Positions 16,422-23,632 of a DNA stretch of 64,000 nucleotides are shown in pieces (positions within the stretch are counted from its first letter, which is position 1; each line of letters opens with the position of its first letter). The stretch comes from an uncultured delta proteobacterium (GTDB lineage: Bacteria; Myxococcota_A; Polyangia; Polyangiales; Polyangiaceae), in assembly GCA_963850305.1 (NCBI GenBank), contig CAWKKR010000006.1, positions 205,269-269,268 on the forward strand, written 5' to 3'. The notes beneath the pieces are model-generated. The model did not search any database. It was given only the letters and a program-made list of their open reading frames with translations, and was not told the origin of the DNA. The position numbers were made by a program, and so were the translations under genes.

Positions 16422-18092
16422 CTAGGGGGGCGTTTCGATACGCTGACGTGACACGAGCAACGCTTGCGACGACCCTGCGCTGGCTCGCGCTTCAATTCGA
16501 ATTGCCAGGGGAGTCGTGGTGCCGAGAGAACACGCGGTGGCGAGTGCAGAATAGGTGCCCCGAGAGAACGCTACCTCGCTCTTGTCGTCCGAGTTCACGA
16601 GGCGCAAATCGGCGCCCTCCGCGCCTGAACTCAAGCCGAGAGCGACGTCCACGCATCGCCCCGCCGGGATACGCAACTCGTCCGCAGAAGTCGTCTCCGG
16701 CGAGAGAGTGAGCACGCGAACCGGAAGAGCTTTGCTCGAGACATCCAGTCGTCCAGCCGCATCAAGTCGCATCAGCGCACGGGCCGCCGCAACAGGGTGG
16801 TCACGGAAAATCGCGGGGGCGTCGAGAGTCGGACGGACCTCAACGGCGAAGGGCCCGGCGCGCACAGCCGACTCGATGTCCACGCGAGCCCGCCCGGACT
16901 CGCACCCGAACAACGTGGCCCGTGCCCCGCCATCATCGTGGGCGACGAGCGAGCCTCGCGCGGACCATAGCCACGCCTCGACGCCGGTGGAGGGCGCGCC
17001 CGGGACCACGTCGACGCGCGAGCAGCCTGCCGGCAAATCGACATCCAGACTCGATCGCTTTCCAACGACCGTCGTACCCGTCCGGATCGAAACCGGAGGA
17101 GCATACCCCTGCCGTGAAAGCGCGCCGGCGAGTGTGCGCTCAGCCTGGTCGAGTGAAGTCGGAGGGTTCGGGTTTCGGAGAATGACGGTTCCAGGTGCGT
17201 CCAGGGATTGAGGATCATCGACGAGGGACGTGACGACCGCCGCGAGGCCGCGGCCTGCGCGTGCCTGGAGCTCCAGCGTGATCTCGGCGGGCACCTCCGA
17301 GCAGACGACTGCTGCCTGCACGCCGACGTCCGACGGCGCGCGGCCGAGGATGCGGCCTTCGGAGTCGAGCACGGTGAGCTCTAGGAACGCTACCTCGTCC
17401 GAGGGAACCACGAGAATGTCGACGCACTGGTGTGATCCGACCGACGCGGAAATTCGGGTCGGCATTCTGGGGTCGACGGGCACCGCACTGCGCTGAACGT
17501 CGCGAAACTGGCCTCTGAGCTGTTGTCTGTGCAAGCCGATTGCAGCGTCGAGGCCGGGCCAGCCGTCGTCATTCAGCCGCTCCTGGCCAGGTGTTCCCTC
17601 CACGCCCATCGCGCTAGCCACGATGTTAGCCAACCGGGGTGCGACCATTTGCATCGATACGGCAAACAGGCCATGCCCCGACGCAACCCGTCCGAAAGCG
17701 TACAGGCGTTCTGGGTGTGGAGGACAGATCACGACGTTAGCGGTCCGGTTCGAAGTCTCGTCTTCGCCGAGGACGGTGCCGTCGTCCGAGTAGACGAACA
17801 GATCGAGATCCTCGACGGCCTTCCCTCCTCTTGCCATGAAGAGAGCGCAATCGACGTTCGTGACGGTCGCTCGTCCGCCGAGATTGTCGCCCGGCGCGCC
17901 GGCGCCTGTGGCCAAGATCGCAAATGGTCCCGCGCCGGCAGCGCGCGCCCTCGCGGCGTCCGCGGCGATGAGTCGAGCACCTTCGGATTCCAGTGGCTCC
18001 TGTCCGGGAACCCGCGGATAAAGTGTGGCGCCGCGGGGTCGCGCGCACCCGACGACGAAGGCGACCAGCGCAATCGCGCCGACGAGTCTCAC
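16422..18092 (-). CDS. Hypothetical lipoprotein with repeated beta-sandwich-like domains
   Basis: VRLVGAIALVAFVVGC lipobox; repeated C....A.G...DLDL.V...DG..L..D units; GTGA coupling. Confidence 0.7.
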   Translation of the reverse strand: MRLVGAIALVAFVVGCARPRGATLYPRVPGQEPLESEGARLIAADAARARAAGAGPFAILATGAGAPGDNLGGRATVTNVDCALFMARGGKAVEDLDLFVYSDDGTVLGEDETSNRTANVVICPPHPERLYAFGRVASGHGLFAVSMQMVAPRLANIVASAMGVEGTPGQERLNDDGWPGLDAAIGLHRQQLRGQFRDVQRSAVPVDPRMPTRISASVGSHQCVDILVVPSDEVAFLELTVLDSEGRILGRAPSDVGVQAAVVCSEVPAEITLELQARAGRGLAAVVTSLVDDPQSLDAPGTVILRNPNPPTSLDQAERTLAGALSRQGYAPPVSIRTGTTVVGKRSSLDVDLPAGCSRVDVVPGAPSTGVEAWLWSARGSLVAHDDGGARATLFGCESGRARVDIESAVRAGPFAVEVRPTLDAPAIFRDHPVAAARALMRLDAAGRLDVSSKALPVRVLTLSPETTSADELRIPAGRCVDVALGLSSGAEGADLRLVNSDDKSEVAFSRGTYSALATACSLGTTTPLAIRIEARASAGSSQALLVSRQRIETPP

Positions 18093-19354
18093 GGAACGAC
18101 CTCGCCCAGCCTGGTTCGCCCGGCGGCCCACATGCCGAGCACCCACGACGGCACTCCGTCTCCACGGACATCGACATCCAGGCTCGCGTGCTCCTCGGCA
18201 CCGACGCAGAACGCCACGACCGCCGCGAGAGACGTGTCGTCCGTGTGGGAGATGGCGCTTGCCGCTCCGGCGGTCGCCTGAAGCGACGCGAACCGCACAC
18301 CATCTTCGAGTGGCGCGAGTCCTGCGAGGTAGCATTCCCCGGGCACCGTTTCGATCCGGATCCGGTCGATGAACCCCGCGCCAAGGGATTCAAACACGGG
18401 CGAGCCGCTCAACGAGTGCACGTTGAGCTGGTCGAGGGCCTTGGCCATGCGAGCTCGTGGTGCCGGGCCCCAGCGCTCAGGCAACCCGACGGGCAGCTCT
18501 TGTCTAGCCCGAATGACGAGCACGGGAGCCTTTGGGGCGCTGCCCGCAAACGAGAGCATCGCAAAGGTGTGACGCGCCGTGCAGGCGAAGAGCGTCGCGT
18601 CAGGACTATCCGTGCGGTCGGCTGCTGCCGTGTCCCCGGAAGTCCAGTCGAGTTCGGCGTCTATATCCCGAGAAGAATCGTCCTTGGTGGCGACGGCGAG
18701 CGCCGCGATGTGGTGGCAGCCGGGGGCAAGATCGAGCAAAAACCGGCCTCCTCCTGTGCGGTCCGAGTCGACCAATCGCCGCTCCACTTCGATTCCGCCC
18801 GCGTCGCGGAACGCTCGCTCCACGGCATCGGCACGATCCGAGAGCGGCGCGGGAAGAGGAAGCGGCCCGGGGTCGACCGGTGGAGGGACGGCCCCCAGGT
18901 CGCGGTGCGGCAAAAGGTTGCGGATGCTGGGCAGTGGAGCGGATGACAGGGCCACGACCGTCTCGATCACGGCACGCGGCGAACGCATCTCGATCGACAG
19001 GTCTGCAAGTGACGCGCGCTCCGCTCCGCACATCGATATCTCCGCAGCGCCCGCCGCGCTCGGAAAGAAGTCATCATCTCGAGATGTCGCGAGGCGCAGA
19101 GCGAACGACGTCGACAGCGCCCCGAACACGGCGATCGTCGTGCAGCCGCGGACATGATCATCCGACGCTTCCGGCGGTAGAGGCAACGGCGTGACGGTGC
19201 CCCCCGCGTAGAAGCGCGGCCGCAACACGTGAACCACGGCGTCGGCACGAAACCGTGCGACCACGCGGTCAACGTCGTCCGCGATTCCCACGGATGCGCG
19301 CGAAGTCACGGTCGCCAGGAAGATCGCGGCGGCGACCGGACGCCCCGTCTTCAC
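18089..19354 (-). CDS. Hypothetical exported protein related to the downstream gene
   Basis: Signal-like N-terminus; GC/EC...A...D.D..L units; overlaps both the mec stop and the next start. Confidence 0.7.
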   Translation of the reverse strand: MKTGRPVAAAIFLATVTSRASVGIADDVDRVVARFRADAVVHVLRPRFYAGGTVTPLPLPPEASDDHVRGCTTIAVFGALSTSFALRLATSRDDDFFPSAAGAAEISMCGAERASLADLSIEMRSPRAVIETVVALSSAPLPSIRNLLPHRDLGAVPPPVDPGPLPLPAPLSDRADAVERAFRDAGGIEVERRLVDSDRTGGGRFLLDLAPGCHHIAALAVATKDDSSRDIDAELDWTSGDTAAADRTDSPDATLFACTARHTFAMLSFAGSAPKAPVLVIRARQELPVGLPERWGPAPRARMAKALDQLNVHSLSGSPVFESLGAGFIDRIRIETVPGECYLAGLAPLEDGVRFASLQATAGAASAISHTDDTSLAAVVAFCVGAEEHASLDVDVRGDGVPSWVLGMWAAGRTRLGEVVP

Positions 19355-19869
19355 TCTTCGACCCGATCGAACGGAGCTTCGATGAAACGCCGCTCTCCTT
19401 CGTCCCAGATGAAGAGCCGATGCGCGGTGACCTCTCCTCGGTCGACGGCGGTCACGAGATAGGCAAGCTCGTACGCGGGCGAATTTCCTTCACCCATGGT
19501 CATGCTCGCCGCATCCTCGGCACTGAAATACGCGCCGCAGTCGAGGTGCGAGTGGAAAAAGACCTTGATCGGTCGTCCACGGGCCACGCCGTCCGCGAGC
19601 GCACGTTCGAACTTGAGCGCGTTGATCTTGAAGTACTCCCTCCCCGTCCGGGGGTGAGATTCGGGGTCCACGCGGTGGTATTTGTTGGCGAGATTTTCCA
19701 GTTCCACGGCCTGATCGGCAAGGAGCGCGTCTTCGGCCGGGCCCGCCACGAACCCGCACGCCTCCTCGTCGCGGGCGTATGCCTCGCGACCTGCGTGTTC
19801 GATCGCACGCAGAGCAGACGCTACGATTCGGACGCCGCCGTTCGTCCATGGGGGCTTGGGCGTCACCAT
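19351..19869 (-). CDS. mec: JAMM/MPN+ metalloprotease, Mec-like CysO-cysteine peptidase
   Basis: EACG and FHSH..CGAYFSAED (HxHx7Sx2D); operon with cysO and cysM. Confidence 0.85.
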   Translation of the reverse strand: MVTPKPPWTNGGVRIVASALRAIEHAGREAYARDEEACGFVAGPAEDALLADQAVELENLANKYHRVDPESHPRTGREYFKINALKFERALADGVARGRPIKVFFHSHLDCGAYFSAEDAASMTMGEGNSPAYELAYLVTAVDRGEVTAHRLFIWDEGERRFIEAPFDRVEE

Positions 19870-20783
19870 ACGTACTTCTTCTCCCATTTCATCGGAGCAA
19901 AGTAGCGATCGCCACGATCGCAGGCGATCGTCACGACGCAACCTGGCTCTCCATTCGCGTGCAGACCCTCCGCGATCCGCACCGCGGCGAACACGTTCGC
20001 ACCGGTGGAGTGCCCGACGAACAGCCCCTCTTCGCTCGCGAGCCGATCCGTCATGTCCCAGCCCTCGTCCGTCGTCACGAAGCCGATTTCGTCGGGCACG
20101 TGAGGATCGTAAATCTCGGGGACGATGCTCGAAGCCAGGTGCTTCAGGCCCTCGAGGCCGTGTAGGGCTTCGGCGGGTTCGATCGAGACACAGTGGACGC
20201 GACGGTGGTGCTCGTGGAGGCGGCGCGTCGTCCCCATCATGGTGCCGCTCGTACCGAGTCCCGTGACGAAATGCGTGATCCGATCGCCGAGAGCGTCCAG
20301 GATCTCCACGCCGGTGCCGTGGTAGTGGGCGAGGGGATTCGATGGGTTCGAGTACTGATCGGGGTAGAAGTACTTCTCCGGATTCTTCGCGACGATCTCG
20401 CGCACGAGGCGGATCGCGCCGTCGGAGCCCTCCATCGGATCGCTGAAGATGAGCTCCGTGCCGAAGGCCTGGGCAATGTCCTTTCGCGCCTTGGTCACGT
20501 TTTTCGGCATCACGAGCTGCACGCGCATCCCGAGCGCGGCACCGATGAGGGAATACGCAACGCCGGTATTCCCGCTGGTCGAGTCAATCAGGATCTTCTG
20601 CGACGTCAACTGCCCGCGCTCGAGCGCGTCTTGCATCATCCGGAGAGCGGGTCGATCTTTTACCGATCCCCCGGGGTTAGCGAATTCGAGCTTCAGATAC
20701 ACCTCGACCGAAGGTGCGCTGCGGGCAATGTTCTCGAGACGCAGCAGCGGCGTGTTGCCGATCGCGTCGATCACCGACGACAT
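19863..20783 (-). CDS. cysM: Cysteine synthase B (CysO-dependent type by context)
   Basis: [34 protein letters not shown] and DRGDRY motifs. Confidence 0.88.
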   Translation of the reverse strand: MSSVIDAIGNTPLLRLENIARSAPSVEVYLKLEFANPGGSVKDRPALRMMQDALERGQLTSQKILIDSTSGNTGVAYSLIGAALGMRVQLVMPKNVTKARKDIAQAFGTELIFSDPMEGSDGAIRLVREIVAKNPEKYFYPDQYSNPSNPLAHYHGTGVEILDALGDRITHFVTGLGTSGTMMGTTRRLHEHHRRVHCVSIEPAEALHGLEGLKHLASSIVPEIYDPHVPDEIGFVTTDEGWDMTDRLASEEGLFVGHSTGANVFAAVRIAEGLHANGEPGCVVTIACDRGDRYFAPMKWEKKYVW

Positions 20784-20809
20784 GCGGCGCGAGCGAACGA
20801 ATCGCGGTT

Positions 20810-21100
20810 TCAATGCACGCCTAGCCTCAGTGTGTGCCGCAGGTGTCGGAGTGCATGCCAGGCGCCCGCCGCGATCTCGCGAGACGCCTGGAAGTGAAAC
20901 CGGCTCCCGTGCACGAACGCGTCCTCGCCACGGGCCGGTCGCAGTTCTGCTGCCGGCACGCCGGCACGCTCGAGATAGAGGAGCGCTATCAGGCCGCCTT
21001 CGGGATCGCGGAGGATCGCAGGGGTGCGTTCGATGCGTGCCTGGCCCTCGGCACCCACCTCAGGCAGACGGCGATGACGGTCGTACCGGTCGTCGTTCAT
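20810..21100 (-). CDS. Minimal catalytically dead ThiF/MoeB-like protein (96 aa)
   Basis: RYDRHRRLPEVGAEGQARI and LYLERAGV match the MoeB N-terminus; no GxGxxG, NLxRQ or CxxC; ATGA coupling to cysO. Confidence 0.72.
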   Translation of the reverse strand: MNDDRYDRHRRLPEVGAEGQARIERTPAILRDPEGGLIALLYLERAGVPAAELRPARGEDAFVHGSRFHFQASREIAAGAWHALRHLRHTLRLGVH

Positions 21101-21372
21101 CCGCCACCGGCGATCGCGGGCACGATGCTGATCTCTTCACCGCCTTTTAGCGCCGTCGCCAGTCCGTCGAGGAAGCGGATGTCCTCGTCGCCGACGTAGA
21201 TGTTCACGAAGCGTCGCACGCCCTTTTCGTCGAGTAACCTGTCGCGAACGCCGGGGTGCTTTTTCTCGAGATTGTCGATCGCCTGCTGGACGGTCGTCCC
21301 TTCGGTGGTGACCTGTTCTTCGCCTCCGGTGAGGGTTCGGAGGGGCGTCGGGATACGAATCGTGATGGCCAT
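21097..21372 (-). CDS. cysO: MoaD/ThiS-family sulfur carrier (CysO-like)
   Basis: IPTPLR..TGG, RRFVNIYV..EDIRFL.GL.T, C-terminal AIAGGG; AAGGAG RBS. Confidence 0.9.
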   Translation of the reverse strand: MAITIRIPTPLRTLTGGEEQVTTEGTTVQQAIDNLEKKHPGVRDRLLDEKGVRRFVNIYVGDEDIRFLDGLATALKGGEEISIVPAIAGGG

Positions 21373-21397
21373 TGGGCTGTCTCCTTGTTCGATCGAC

Positions 21398-22144
21398 TCA
21401 AGCGGCGCAGCTTGCGCCCGTGTACCTCGTCTCGTCGATGCCGAAAATGCGTGCGCGCGGGTCCGCAAAGCGGGCAGTTGCAGCGAGCGGTCACCGGAAC
21501 CTCCCGGAGCGGTCCGAGATCCCGTCGTAGGTGTGGATCGTTCCCGCGGCCGTCGAGATCATCGACCGCGATCCGGAGCGCGAGATCAGCCATCAGCGCG
21601 CCGGCGATGTCCGACGACGGGCGCCATCACGCCCGGCTCCCGCGCAGCTCGGCTGAGCCTCTCCGTCCGGCAGATCCTCGAACAGGCAACGGTAGCAGGG
21701 CTCGCCGCGTGCGCCGACGGCCCAGCGCCGTGGCGCGAAAGCGCACCGCCGACGCGTGCACCACCGGGCGCTCCTCGAGCCGGCACGCATCCGCCGTCAG
21801 AAACTTCGTTGCGAAATTGTCCGCGCCTTCGAGCACGACGTCGTACCGAGCGAACGAGCGCGCGAGCGTTCTCCGGCAGGAGCCGCGTCGCGAACGAGCT
21901 CGATGCGGGTCCCAGGAGACCGCCGGGCTAGTGCGCGTTCGCGCCGCCACCAGTTTCGGCTGCCCGACGTCGTCGTCGTCGAAGAGGATCTGCCGGTGCA
22001 GATTCGTGAGGTCGACGAGGTCGTCGTCGCACGAGCACGAGTCGCCCGACGCCCGCGCGCAGCGAGCGCGAGCGCCGCCGGGCAGCCGAGTCCGCCGATG
22101 CCGACGACGAGCACGCTCGTCGCCCGGAGCCGCGTCCGAATCAC
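21398..22144 (-). CDS. moeB: ThiF/MoeB-family adenylyltransferase (E1-like), multiple frameshifts
   Basis: Across frames: [45 protein letters not shown] and NCPLCG. Confidence 0.85.
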
Positions 22145-23108
22145 GAGCTGAAGTACTCATCGAGGCTGAAATAGCGCTCTCCGGTGTCGGCAGGCACGCG
22201 TGACGACGTTTTGCCCGGCCCGAGCTCGCGCGCCACCGTCCAGCGCCACGGCCATGGCCGCGCCGGAGCTGATGCCGACGAGCAGCCCTGCGTTCGCGAG
22301 CCAGACGGCGCGTCATTCGATAAGCAGTGTCGTCGGTGACCGTGCTTACTTCGTCGACGATGCTCGCATCGTAGTTGCGCGGGACGAACCCCGCCGCCGA
22401 GTCCCTGGATCTTCGTCGGCCCGCGTTCGTCGCGCGAGATCGTGGCGCACGACTCGGGCTCGACCGCGACGACGCGGCACGCGCGATTCGCTTCCTTCAA
22501 ACGTCGGCCGACCCCGCTCACCGTGCCGCCTGTGCCACGCCCGCGACGAACGCATCCACGCGAGATCCCCCATGGCATGGAGAATCTCGGGCGCCGGTCG
22601 TTTCGTAGTGGGCGGCCGGGTTCACGGGGTTGTCGAACTGCTGCGGCATGAAGACGTCGCTGCTCTCCTTCGCGATCTGCTCGGCCCGCTGGATGGCGCC
22701 GGCCATCTGATCCTCTTCCGGCGTGAGCACGACCTCCGCACCGAGCGCGCTGAGCAGAGCTGCGTCGCTCGAGGCTCATGCTTGCGGGCATCGTGAGAAC
22801 GCAGCTGTAGCCCCGCGCGCGCGGCGACGAGCGAAAGACCGATGCCCGTGTTGCCGCTCGTCGGTTCCAGCACGATCCCGCCCTTGCGCAGCTGTCCCAG
22901 TGCGTTCAGCCTCGTCGATCATCGCCAGGCAGATCCGGTCCTTGACCGAGCCGCCCGGGTTGAAAAACTCACCCTTGGCCCAGAGCGCCGCACGCGGCTC
23001 TTCCCGGTCCAGCTGGATCTCGAAGAGCGGCGTGTCACCAACGAGCTCGAGCAAGCTTCCGTAAACACACGGGTGATCGGGGAGGGGGGGCAATCGTGAC
23101 GTCGGCAT
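22141..23108 (-). CDS. cysK: Cysteine synthase A, multiple frameshifts
   Basis: Across frames: [50 protein letters not shown] and DTGERYFS. Confidence 0.85.
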
Positions 23109-23118
23109 CGGGGGCGCC

Positions 23119-23571
23119 TCAGATGACATAGACCTGCCGATTCGCCCCGGGGCGAGGGACGCCGAGCTCTTCTGCCCTTCCGCAGATGTCTGCGATCGTC
23201 ACCTTGTCGAAGCAGCGCTGGATCTCCCCCGACAGTTCGCGAAAGACGGCGTCCGTCACGCGTCGCGACGAGGACGTCCTGTCGGCTCCGGCGCCGTCCT
23301 CGGCCAGGGCGATCGGGCCCTCCAGGGCGCGAATCACATCTCCGACCCCGATGTGATTCGCCCCGCGGGCCAGGTTGTAGCCGCCTTGCGGACCTCGCTT
23401 CGACGCGACGATTCCCGCACGCTTCAGGTCCTGAAAGATCTGCTCCAGAAACCGTGGCGGGATGTTCTGACGCTCCGCGATGTCTTTCACCTGCGTGGGC
23501 TGGCCCTCGTTGTAAAAGGCGATGTCGAAGAGCGCTCGAACCGCATAACGGCCTTTCTTCGAGAGCTTCAC
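23119..23571 (-). CDS. Rrf2-family transcriptional regulator (CymR-like, lacks the IscR Cys triad)
   Basis: KLSKKGRYAVRAL, IAERQNIPPRFLEQI and SKRGPQGGY; heads the cys operon. Confidence 0.9.
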   Translation of the reverse strand: MKLSKKGRYAVRALFDIAFYNEGQPTQVKDIAERQNIPPRFLEQIFQDLKRAGIVASKRGPQGGYNLARGANHIGVGDVIRALEGPIALAEDGAGADRTSSSRRVTDAVFRELSGEIQRCFDKVTIADICGRAEELGVPRPGANRQVYVI

Positions 23572-23632
23572 GTCCTCGGGTATGCATTTCCACATCGGAA
23601 ATGTCAAGAACAGGCCCTCTCGGCCCGTGGCT

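Follow-up and report, generated by a model that had tools for sequence, protein, structure and literature searches.

The stretch of DNA analysed here (the window) is 64,000 nucleotides (nt) long and belongs to an uncultured delta proteobacterium of the Polyangiaceae (GCA_963850305.1, contig CAWKKR010000006.1, positions 205,269-269,268). It contains a module of genes which, together with an Rrf2 regulator, are all located on the minus strand in the transcription order Rrf2 regulator, cysK-like, moeB, cysO, a 96-amino acid (aa) open reading frame (ORF), cysM and mec. Two of these genes are of primary interest. The moeB gene (21398..22160, minus strand) codes for a ThiF-family adenylyltransferase without the N-terminal RYxRQ segment, referred to here as MoeB-deltaN. 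The 96-aa ORF (20810..21100, minus strand) codes for a mini pseudo-E1, a reduced relative of the activating enzymes (E1), as indicated by motif and profile evidence. It is probable that the two polypeptides together constitute one E1-like enzyme within a CysO-dependent cysteine-synthesis operon.

The cysO gene (21097..21372, minus strand) resides between them, as the initial annotation of the window had stated. It is intact and encodes a ubiquitin-like, ThiS/MoaD-type sulfur carrier with a C-terminal Gly-Gly-Gly (Pfam ThiS, 1.7e-16); its match to the NCBIfam SAMP1 model (E 4.9e-15) falls under the cut-off of that model. The 96-aa ORF is also intact and begins MNDDRYDRHRRLPEVGAEGQARI. It shares 4 nt with the gene on either side, its ATG overlapping the cysO stop and its own stop the longest cysM ORF. 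The cysM gene (19863..20813, minus strand) codes for a CysM-type cysteine synthase dependent on pyridoxal 5′-phosphate (PLP), with a match to Pfam PALP at 2.3e-60. It scores 328 bits against NCBIfam TIGR01138, the cut-off of 394 not being reached, and its true start may be an ATG 10 codons inside the listed ORF. The last gene, mec (19351..19941, minus strand), encodes a JAB/JAMM metalloprotease (Pfam Prok-JAB, 9.9e-9). Both cysM and mec are intact. The presence in one operon of a ThiS-like carrier with a Gly-Gly end, a CysM-type synthase and a JAB protease marks the module, as far as sequence can tell, as a CysO/CysM/Mec system for cysteine synthesis. There is no Pfam match to the families of conjugating enzymes (E2) for any gene within 19351-23607.

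The first gene of the module, cysK-like (22141..23129, minus strand), encodes a PLP-dependent cysteine synthase paralogue. It is frameshifted in the window and intact in the loci read from relatives. The gene of the Rrf2-family transcription regulator (23119..23607, minus strand; Pfam PF02082, E 1.6e-36) adjoins the operon on this upstream side. Beyond the other end, downstream of mec, there are two ORFs of 637 aa and 421 aa (16422-19354, minus strand) with no Pfam family at E<=0.001.

Truncation of MoeB-deltaN and frameshifts in the window

The window moeB is frameshifted, and its fragments match Pfam ThiF with 70.5 and 24.8 bits. The initial annotation had placed its start in a GTGA overlap with cysK, only 14 codons ahead of the GIGGLG sequence of the P-loop. 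This overlap, between a GTG at 22144 and the cysK stop, is present at 22141-22144. The native start, however, is probably the ATG at 22160, about 19 codons ahead. In 14 of 17 relatives the possible MoeB start is an ATG located 18-21 codons ahead of the P-loop and overlapping the end of cysK; 22160 is the window counterpart of this codon, and only an extra base near 22121 puts it out of the P-loop frame. Under either start the RYxRQ segment is absent and there is no upstream room for it, as the initial annotation had stated. In the loci of the 17 relatives MoeB is a single open frame, in each case without RYxRQ.

A search with a MoeB-deltaN alignment revealed at least 582 relatives, from which the best 80 loci in species-representative genomes were examined. 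All 80 are labelled Polyangiaceae, Polyangiales, Myxococcales, Myxococcota or unclassified. The moeB gene is intact in all of these best 80 loci, and none of them holds the pattern R[YFHW]xR[QH] within 45 in-frame residues ahead of the P-loop. Likewise, no RYxRQ was seen in 16 loci read directly. The MoeB-deltaN protein of one relative (L005) aligns in phmmer with ThiF at 3.5e-41 and with Escherichia coli MoeB at 3e-37, its residue 5 corresponding to ThiF residue 20 and its residue 6 to MoeB residue 24. As the alignment begins at these positions, the segment that holds ThiF Arg11 and MoeB Arg14 is missing.

The remainder of the protein, which is about 250 aa long and has neither an inserted domain nor a rhodanese domain, has the appearance of a complete adenylyltransferase. 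The L005 orthologue scores 192.8 bits against PF00899 (cut-off 28.1) over profile positions 12-237; the N-terminal RYxRQ with its trans arginine, as found in ThiF, MoeB and E1 proteins, is the element that MoeB-deltaN lacks. Among 17 orthologues the GxGGLG P-loop (G20/G22/G23/G25), DDD, NLHRQ (R55), K68 and D112-N113 are invariant or at least 90% kept. The CxxC pairs C153/C156 and C225/C228 and the crossover-loop cysteine C170 are also kept. A full-length rhodanese-ThiF gene is additionally present in each genome, on contig 7 in the case of the window's genome.

The frame damage in the window was mapped through a frameshift-aware alignment, with the intact same-genus orthologues of locus L044 as references. 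The moeB gene contains 12 single-base shifts (11 extra, 1 missing), near 22121, 22060, 22032, 21935, 21889, 21843, 21725, 21640, 21609, 21557, 21507 and 21449. Following this correction, which the initial annotation had called for, the gene is open with 0 in-frame stops, and 179 of its 248 codons (72%) are identical to L044. The cysK-like gene contains 9 single-base shifts (7 extra, 2 missing), near 22892, 22816, 22761, 22595, 22563, 22537, 22398, 22292 and 22237, again with 0 in-frame stops and with 238 of 317 codons (75%) identical. All 21 indels, of which 18 are insertions, fall within a 1.45-kb patch (21449-22892); only these two genes are hit and the flanking genes are intact. Since MoeB orthologues of the same genus are 69-82% identical to one another, the window moeB shows no excess substitution. 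Clustered, insertion-biased indels with no stops and no excess substitution would make a badly polished assembly patch likelier than natural decay. We would moderately favour such an artefact over a very recent decay, in which exactly two adjacent genes would have been inactivated.

Further material on this point is sparse. A public soil-metagenome run (0.08 of words) provided short contigs on the window, none of which spans the frameshifted stretch. A 191-nt contig of a relative, with 7 differing letters, is without the base at 22236, beside the predicted extra base at 22237. A map of phase switching in the GC content of third codon positions (GC3) and of ORF gaps in the window was too noisy with regard to further frameshift patches. 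In another genome (G034:C7:58936-60185), a short ThiF fragment (profile positions 103-176) is located beside a match to the small protein that is interrupted by a TGA, possibly a further copy of the module that has been damaged.

The small protein family and its linkage to truncated moeB

The 96-aa protein of the window contains a finger helix, R5-Y-D-R8-H, followed by GxxGQ, a degenerate beta1-alphaA-beta2 unit without a P-loop and a C-terminal helix. The family keeps R[YF]xRQ..GxxGQ, with His at the Q9 position in the window copy. There is no GxGxxG, NLxRQ or CxxC motif in the window ORF, and no Pfam family matches it at E<=1. The NCBIfam models MoeB, MoeZ, ThiF and UbaA match its residues 2-49 only, the best being MoeB at 2.9e-6; this match reaches 26 bits against a cut-off of 449, and the E1-fold profile and P-loop of a member enzyme are thus wanting. 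These matches point to a derived fragment of the ThiF/MoeB/E1 fold as opposed to a member enzyme. A profile built from 19 members of the family matched PDB entries of Uba4, ThiF and MoeB, with E values of 4.2e-8 to 1.2e-5 and through the N-terminal 60-70 residues only. The likeness to the E1 N-terminus is beyond chance.

The same profile, when run against 1.84 billion representative proteins, matched 5599 at E<=1e-3, of which 410 reached E<=1e-10, the weaker matches including the N-termini of ordinary ThiF proteins. Motifs were counted in the best 150 cluster representatives from this search. The median length is 99 aa, with 142 of the 150 in the range of 80-125 aa. The finger arginine (R8 in the window) is Arg in 144 and the following position (Q9) is Gln in 144. 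Similar conservation is seen for L12 (Leu in 140), G16 (147), G19 (149), Q20 (145), Y42 (150), G47 (150) and A83 (147). The NLxRQ and CxxC motifs occur only in a fused protein, P0009, and a P-loop-like pattern only in P0009 and P0112. There is no conserved cysteine. The initial annotation had described an ORF with the finger motif and without the P-loop, NLxRQ or zinc cysteines, and this holds for the window copy as well as for the family. Its term "dead partner" is apt as regards the catalytic motifs, which are gone; the protein is, however, a remnant of 90-105 aa and not a full-size subunit.

The ratio of nonsynonymous to synonymous substitution (dN/dS, Nei-Gojobori) of the small gene is 0.15-0.34 in all 8 pairs compared, and is 0.19 in the closest pair, L008/L010, the distant pairs being saturated in dS. 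The source label of the protein is "hypothetical protein" (Polyangiaceae, Myxococcota). It is a genuine, unannotated family under purifying selection. A phylum-wide search with the small profile (E<=1e-12) matched 15 of 201 genomes, 12 of them within the order of the window. The other 3 matches lie in open frames of 415-428 aa, and 2 of these span only the N-terminal two-thirds of the profile; these 3 were rejected as family members and are likely the N-termini of full-length ThiF proteins.

The initial annotation had suggested examining whether the truncated MoeB and the small ORF occur together across genomes, and this linkage proved to be strong. For 61 relatives, the ThiF matches were compared with the matches to the small profile, a pair being regarded as linked when on the same strand and at most 1.5 kb downstream. 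A total of 113 ThiF rows were typed and 28 short or low-scoring rows were dropped. A separate, linked small-protein match was found for 41 of 43 N-truncated ThiF matches (starting at or beyond profile position 11), and both of the unlinked matches sit at contig starts (base 3 and base 6). Full-profile ThiF matches (starting at or before position 5) were linked in 1 of 69 cases, in genome G047. The MoeB of this genome, when read directly, starts 21 codons ahead of the P-loop and without RYxRQ, so it is also truncated. One of the dropped rows, G034:C18 (profile 17-226, 69 bits), fits the truncated rule for its two ends and has no small-protein match nearby. Among the best 80 loci, 69 have at least 800 nt downstream of MoeB, and the small gene is present there in 68. 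The ATGA overlap of 4 nt with the cysO stop is found in the window and in 7 of 17 cysO-bearing loci of relatives.

The finger lost in MoeB is thus kept in the neighbouring small protein, as the initial annotation had claimed under the term complementary degeneration. On the genes compared, this complementary loss is real, and more than 100 species-level genomes share it. Two fusions have been found. In P0009 (365 aa; a cluster of 4 members from NCBI, JGI and Logan) a ThiF domain (13-235) is joined to a small domain (273-363), and in P0081 a ThiS domain (5-90) is joined to a small domain (96-184). At L020:949-1773 (minus strand; genome G013) there is no cysM, and the small frame continues stop-free into mec/JAB, a possible small-Mec fusion of 275 aa.

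In 8 loci (L019, L034, L035, L056, L099, L108, L114 and L117) the small gene comes immediately after moeB and cysO does not intervene. In the last five of these, the small-protein match is located 23-58 nt past the moeB match. The other three pairs lie at L034:2246-3408, L035:2334-3445 and L019:704-1764 (genomes G030, G028 and G027, respectively). No cysO, cysM or mec was found in the 6-kb stretches fetched from G030 and G028. The small proteins of these two genomes carry low-complexity insertions of 40-60 residues ahead of the last helix.

Predicted fold and complex

An AlphaFold2 model of the small protein, generated from a 19-row alignment, has a predicted local distance difference test score (pLDDT) of 89.8 and a predicted template modelling score (pTM) of 0.80. 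Its elements are helices at 7-11 and 16-25, a strand at 28-31, a helix at 36-46, a strand at 51-54 and a helix at 71-90. The best Foldseek rows are all of the E1 type, led by ThiF (1zfn_A, E 4.1e-3), with none reaching 1e-3. When superposed by VIA-align, all 96 residues align with Uba4 (Z 8.3, root-mean-square deviation (rmsd) 3.7, chain 9-233) and with ThiF (Z 7.6, rmsd 3.9, chain 3-215), followed by MoeB (Z 7.1-7.3, chain 5-220), APPBP1 (6.4-6.6) and SAE1 (up to 6.2); a Z under 8 can reflect a common arrangement, and is backed here by profile matches to the same proteins.

As the aligned part of the chain, in which all 96 residues find a match, extends to about ThiF 215, the last helix is the counterpart of a late ThiF helix (about 188-213), to which helix 177-195 of MoeB-deltaN also maps by alignment. 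In divergent members the last helix includes GAFAAVEAIK, which resembles the GTLQATEAIK of the genome's full-length ThiF. In a Pfam run at E<=10 the N-terminal 20-24 residues were matched in 2 of 6 divergent members. The small protein can be read from this model as a ThiF paralogue without its middle part (approximately ThiF 65-185) and its C-terminal part.

The complex was predicted with two copies of MoeB-deltaN (L005), two of the small protein of the same genome and two ATP molecules, using custom alignments. This 2:2 complex reached an interface score (ipSAE) of 0.88 in all 3 runs; the best of 3 controls reached 0.01. In calibration, 116 of 157 solved complexes attain the mark set for this score, as do 2 of 215 mismatched pairs, counts which apply only roughly here because custom alignments were used and a ligand was included. 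At least 94% of the contacts are shared between runs, with a partner pLDDT of at least 89.

In the model, the small protein makes contact through residues 5-16 (the finger segment), 39-48 (alphaA) and 64-96 (the last helix), and MoeB-deltaN through residues 27-36 (alphaA), 50-57 (which include R55), 138-139, 170-198 (crossover loop and helix) and 205-214. According to these contacts, the finger segment is expected to rest on the part of the ATP site that contains NLHRQ. This agrees with the initial annotation, which had proposed modelling as a check on whether the arginine reaches this site; the contact of the arginine with ATP itself we infer from the contact lists. The contacted surfaces of MoeB-deltaN would be the canonical dimer surfaces, with the small protein acting like a second protomer. 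The stoichiometry may be 1:1 or 2:2.

Proposed mechanism, rival readings and known systems

In the proposed mechanism, MoeB-deltaN would have kept the whole adenylation machinery and lost its first 20 or so residues. The small protein would descend from a second ThiF-type copy, from which the catalytic core and the C-terminal part were deleted, and which would retain the finger helix, GxxGQ, a P-loop-less beta1-alphaA-beta2 unit and one long helix. It would dock on MoeB-deltaN at the canonical seat of the second subunit and restore a pseudo-dimer surface. Its conserved arginine would thereby come to lie next to the arginine of NLHRQ, at the phosphates of ATP, which would allow CysO to be adenylated. 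The CysO thiocarboxylate may then be used by CysM and Mec to form cysteine. The mechanism builds on what was observed above, namely the order of the genes, the motifs lost and retained, their conservation, the co-occurrence and fusions of the genes, and purifying selection; the fold of the small protein and its binding to MoeB-deltaN are predicted, and the activity of MoeB-deltaN may require the small protein in place of a second protomer. A stricter version can be put forward only tentatively, namely an obligate 1:1 heterodimer with a single active site, for which the arginine finger as well as the dimer surface would come from a vestige of 96 residues.

A number of observations weigh against a two-polypeptide enzyme of this kind. 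In one lower-GC, 11.5-Mb metagenome-assembled genome of the Polyangiaceae (G252; L123:2282-4544), MoeB-deltaN and cysO are followed directly by cysM. A separate small protein was not found in this genome with the family profile, the sole match being part of a 450-aa open frame. Arg14 of E. coli MoeB and Arg11 of ThiF are described in PMC13139853 as not essential for catalysis. The contact of the arginine with ATP and the seat at the canonical interface are taken from lists of predicted contacts, and the complex score may reflect likeness and not binding, because the partner is homologous to parts of solved ThiF, MoeB and E1 dimers. The origin of the last helix is weakly marked in sequence: in BLASTP, a divergent member matched the full-length ThiF of its genome at 7e-8 in the N-terminus and at only 0.48 in the last helix, and Pfam (E<=10) found no ThiF stretch in the last helix of any of 6 divergent members. 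The comparison of the small family with MoeB-deltaN in hhalign was also weak (E 0.032, probability 1.6%). Moreover, the window's own moeB can be read only after 12 frame corrections.

The most serious rival holds that MoeB-deltaN is an ordinary, finger-less homodimer that acts alone, and that the small protein has a different function, for instance to link the E1 with CysO and CysM or to connect it to a sulfur donor. The dispensable finger reported for E. coli MoeB and ThiF (PMC13139853), the truncated MoeB of G252 with no detectable partner, and the location of the small gene between cysO and cysM in most loci, away from moeB, would all suit this rival. This reading nevertheless appears unlikely, as the segment lost from MoeB-deltaN is the very segment kept in the small protein, with its arginine in 144 of 150 members, and falls on the NLHRQ region in the predicted contacts. 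The absence of a conserved cysteine from the small protein, the fusion of both proteins in P0009 and the 8 loci in which the small gene directly follows moeB also speak against it. A further proposal is that the small protein is a negative regulator, a catalytically dead cap that keeps either MoeB-deltaN or the housekeeping rhodanese-ThiF inactive by covering its dimer surface. It is decidedly improbable. Constant one-to-one co-encoding and translational coupling suit a subunit better, the losses are complementary, with a near-invariant finger arginine in the small protein that MoeB-deltaN lacks, and the P0009 fusion would amount to a constitutively inhibited enzyme. What such a regulator has in its favour is that all catalytic residues are absent from the small protein, that its predicted binding is to surfaces taken to be dimer surfaces, and that a full-length rhodanese-ThiF is encoded on contig 7 as a possible target.

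The small ORF could also be a leftover without function, derived from a ThiF gene that was duplicated, with the whole E1 part of the operon in decay in the window. The 21 single-base indels in moeB and cysK would fit this explanation, as would genome G034, where only a ThiF fragment and a small match with its internal TGA are seen; the rhodanese-ThiF located elsewhere could then serve CysO, as reported for mycobacterial MoeZ (PMC3227635). Such a leftover is the least probable of these explanations, given a dN/dS of 0.15-0.34, the length and motifs kept across 150 cluster representatives and a MoeB that is intact in all of the best 80 loci. The broken genes themselves, with no stops, 72% and 75% identity and 18 insertions among 21 indels, seem unlike the products of natural decay. 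The two-polypeptide enzyme thus remains the preferred reading. The word "obligate" in the initial annotation is not upheld, in view of G252 and of the reportedly non-essential finger (PMC13139853). The same annotation had named homologous operons with a full-length MoeB, or without the small ORF, as evidence to the contrary; no full-length MoeB occurs in the best 80 loci, and the small ORF is missing in G252.

Completion of an ATP site by a second subunit is a known feature of this superfamily. The site of Uba4 is completed by an arginine of the second subunit (PMC7527816), and ThiF Arg11 and MoeB Arg14 reach in from the neighbouring subunit (PMC13139853). MoeB-deltaN shares with ThiF (PDB 1zud), MoeB (1jw9) and Uba4 the fold, the P-loop, the NLxRQ arginine, the lysine, the Mg-binding aspartate, and the zinc and crossover-loop cysteines. 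It differs in that the arginine-bearing segment is found on a separate 96-aa protein without nucleotide- and carrier-binding parts.

The eukaryotic pairs NAE1(APPBP1)-UBA3 and SAE1-SAE2 likewise combine an active subunit with an inactive partner that supplies the arginine for a single ATP site, an arrangement that is proposed here; the structures matched by the small protein include those of APPBP1 and SAE1 (Z 6.2-6.6). Their inactive subunits, however, are full adenylation-like domains of 300-530 residues, as opposed to about 96. They also have Cys and ubiquitin-fold (UFD) domains and pass the Ubl (ubiquitin-like protein) on to an E2, whereas neither domain is present here and the product is a sulfur carrier. 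The split into MoeB-deltaN and the small protein is of independent origin from eukaryotic E1s and limited to a lineage. The parallel with eukaryotes drawn in the initial annotation is therefore supported in kind, through complementary loss and a predicted heteromer, and not in degree, as regards an obligate pair with a full dead subunit.

Asymmetric pairs of the ThiF/E1 type in which a catalytically poor half gives the finger arginine are also represented by Tcd1-Tcd2 and BilD. Yeast Tcd1 donates Arg59 to Tcd2 (PMC13139853), and BilD holds an inactive and an active adenylation domain in a single chain, with Arg9 coming from the inactive one (PMC10557695, a preprint). According to the latter, bacterial E1-like proteins known until then were all homodimers. 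In both systems the halves are full-size, there is no partner of about 96 residues and neither works on a sulfur carrier, BilD being an antiviral conjugation system and Tcd serving tRNA modification. An operon type with ThiS/MoaD, E1-like, JAB and cysteine synthase genes is listed as row 4c of PMC1779556, with the E1 fused to rhodanese. With the CysO-CysM-Mec pathway of Mycobacterium tuberculosis the module shares the ThiS-like carrier, the CysM-type synthase and the JAB protease. The E1 of that pathway, however, is a full-length ThiF fused to rhodanese, MoeZ (PMC1779556 and PMC3227635), whereas the E1 here is N-truncated, without rhodanese, and accompanied by the small partner and a second, cysK-like gene. 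The literature searched yielded no account of a MoeB that is truncated and has a small partner; the treatment of the E1-like superfamily by Burroughs et al. 2009 may contain one.

Bacterial E1-type enzymes are homodimeric, whereas those of eukaryotes form asymmetric pairs, and the origin of the inactive half is usually argued from distant comparisons. The module, found in at least 582 relatives within the Polyangiaceae/Myxococcota, provides a natural, lineage-wide case within an ordinary metabolic pathway. An inactive half cut to about 96 residues marks the parts that selection keeps, i.e., the finger helix, alphaA and one long helix. The system is small and tractable for asking whether the active half needs the trans arginine or the dimer surface. 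If the obligate 1:1 heterodimer is correct, it would contain the smallest known inactive adenylation domain, would reveal which parts of an inactive half are truly needed and would represent an independent bacterial replay of the step from a homodimeric MoeB-like enzyme to the asymmetric eukaryotic E1. Automatic annotation will score these moeB genes as complete although the active site is probably finished by another gene.

The module also holds a second cysteine-synthase paralogue in the cysK-like gene, which is located upstream of moeB in nearly all relatives and the stop of which overlaps the MoeB start. As MoeB-deltaN is without a rhodanese domain, the cysK-like enzyme is a candidate source of the sulfur for CysO in the module.

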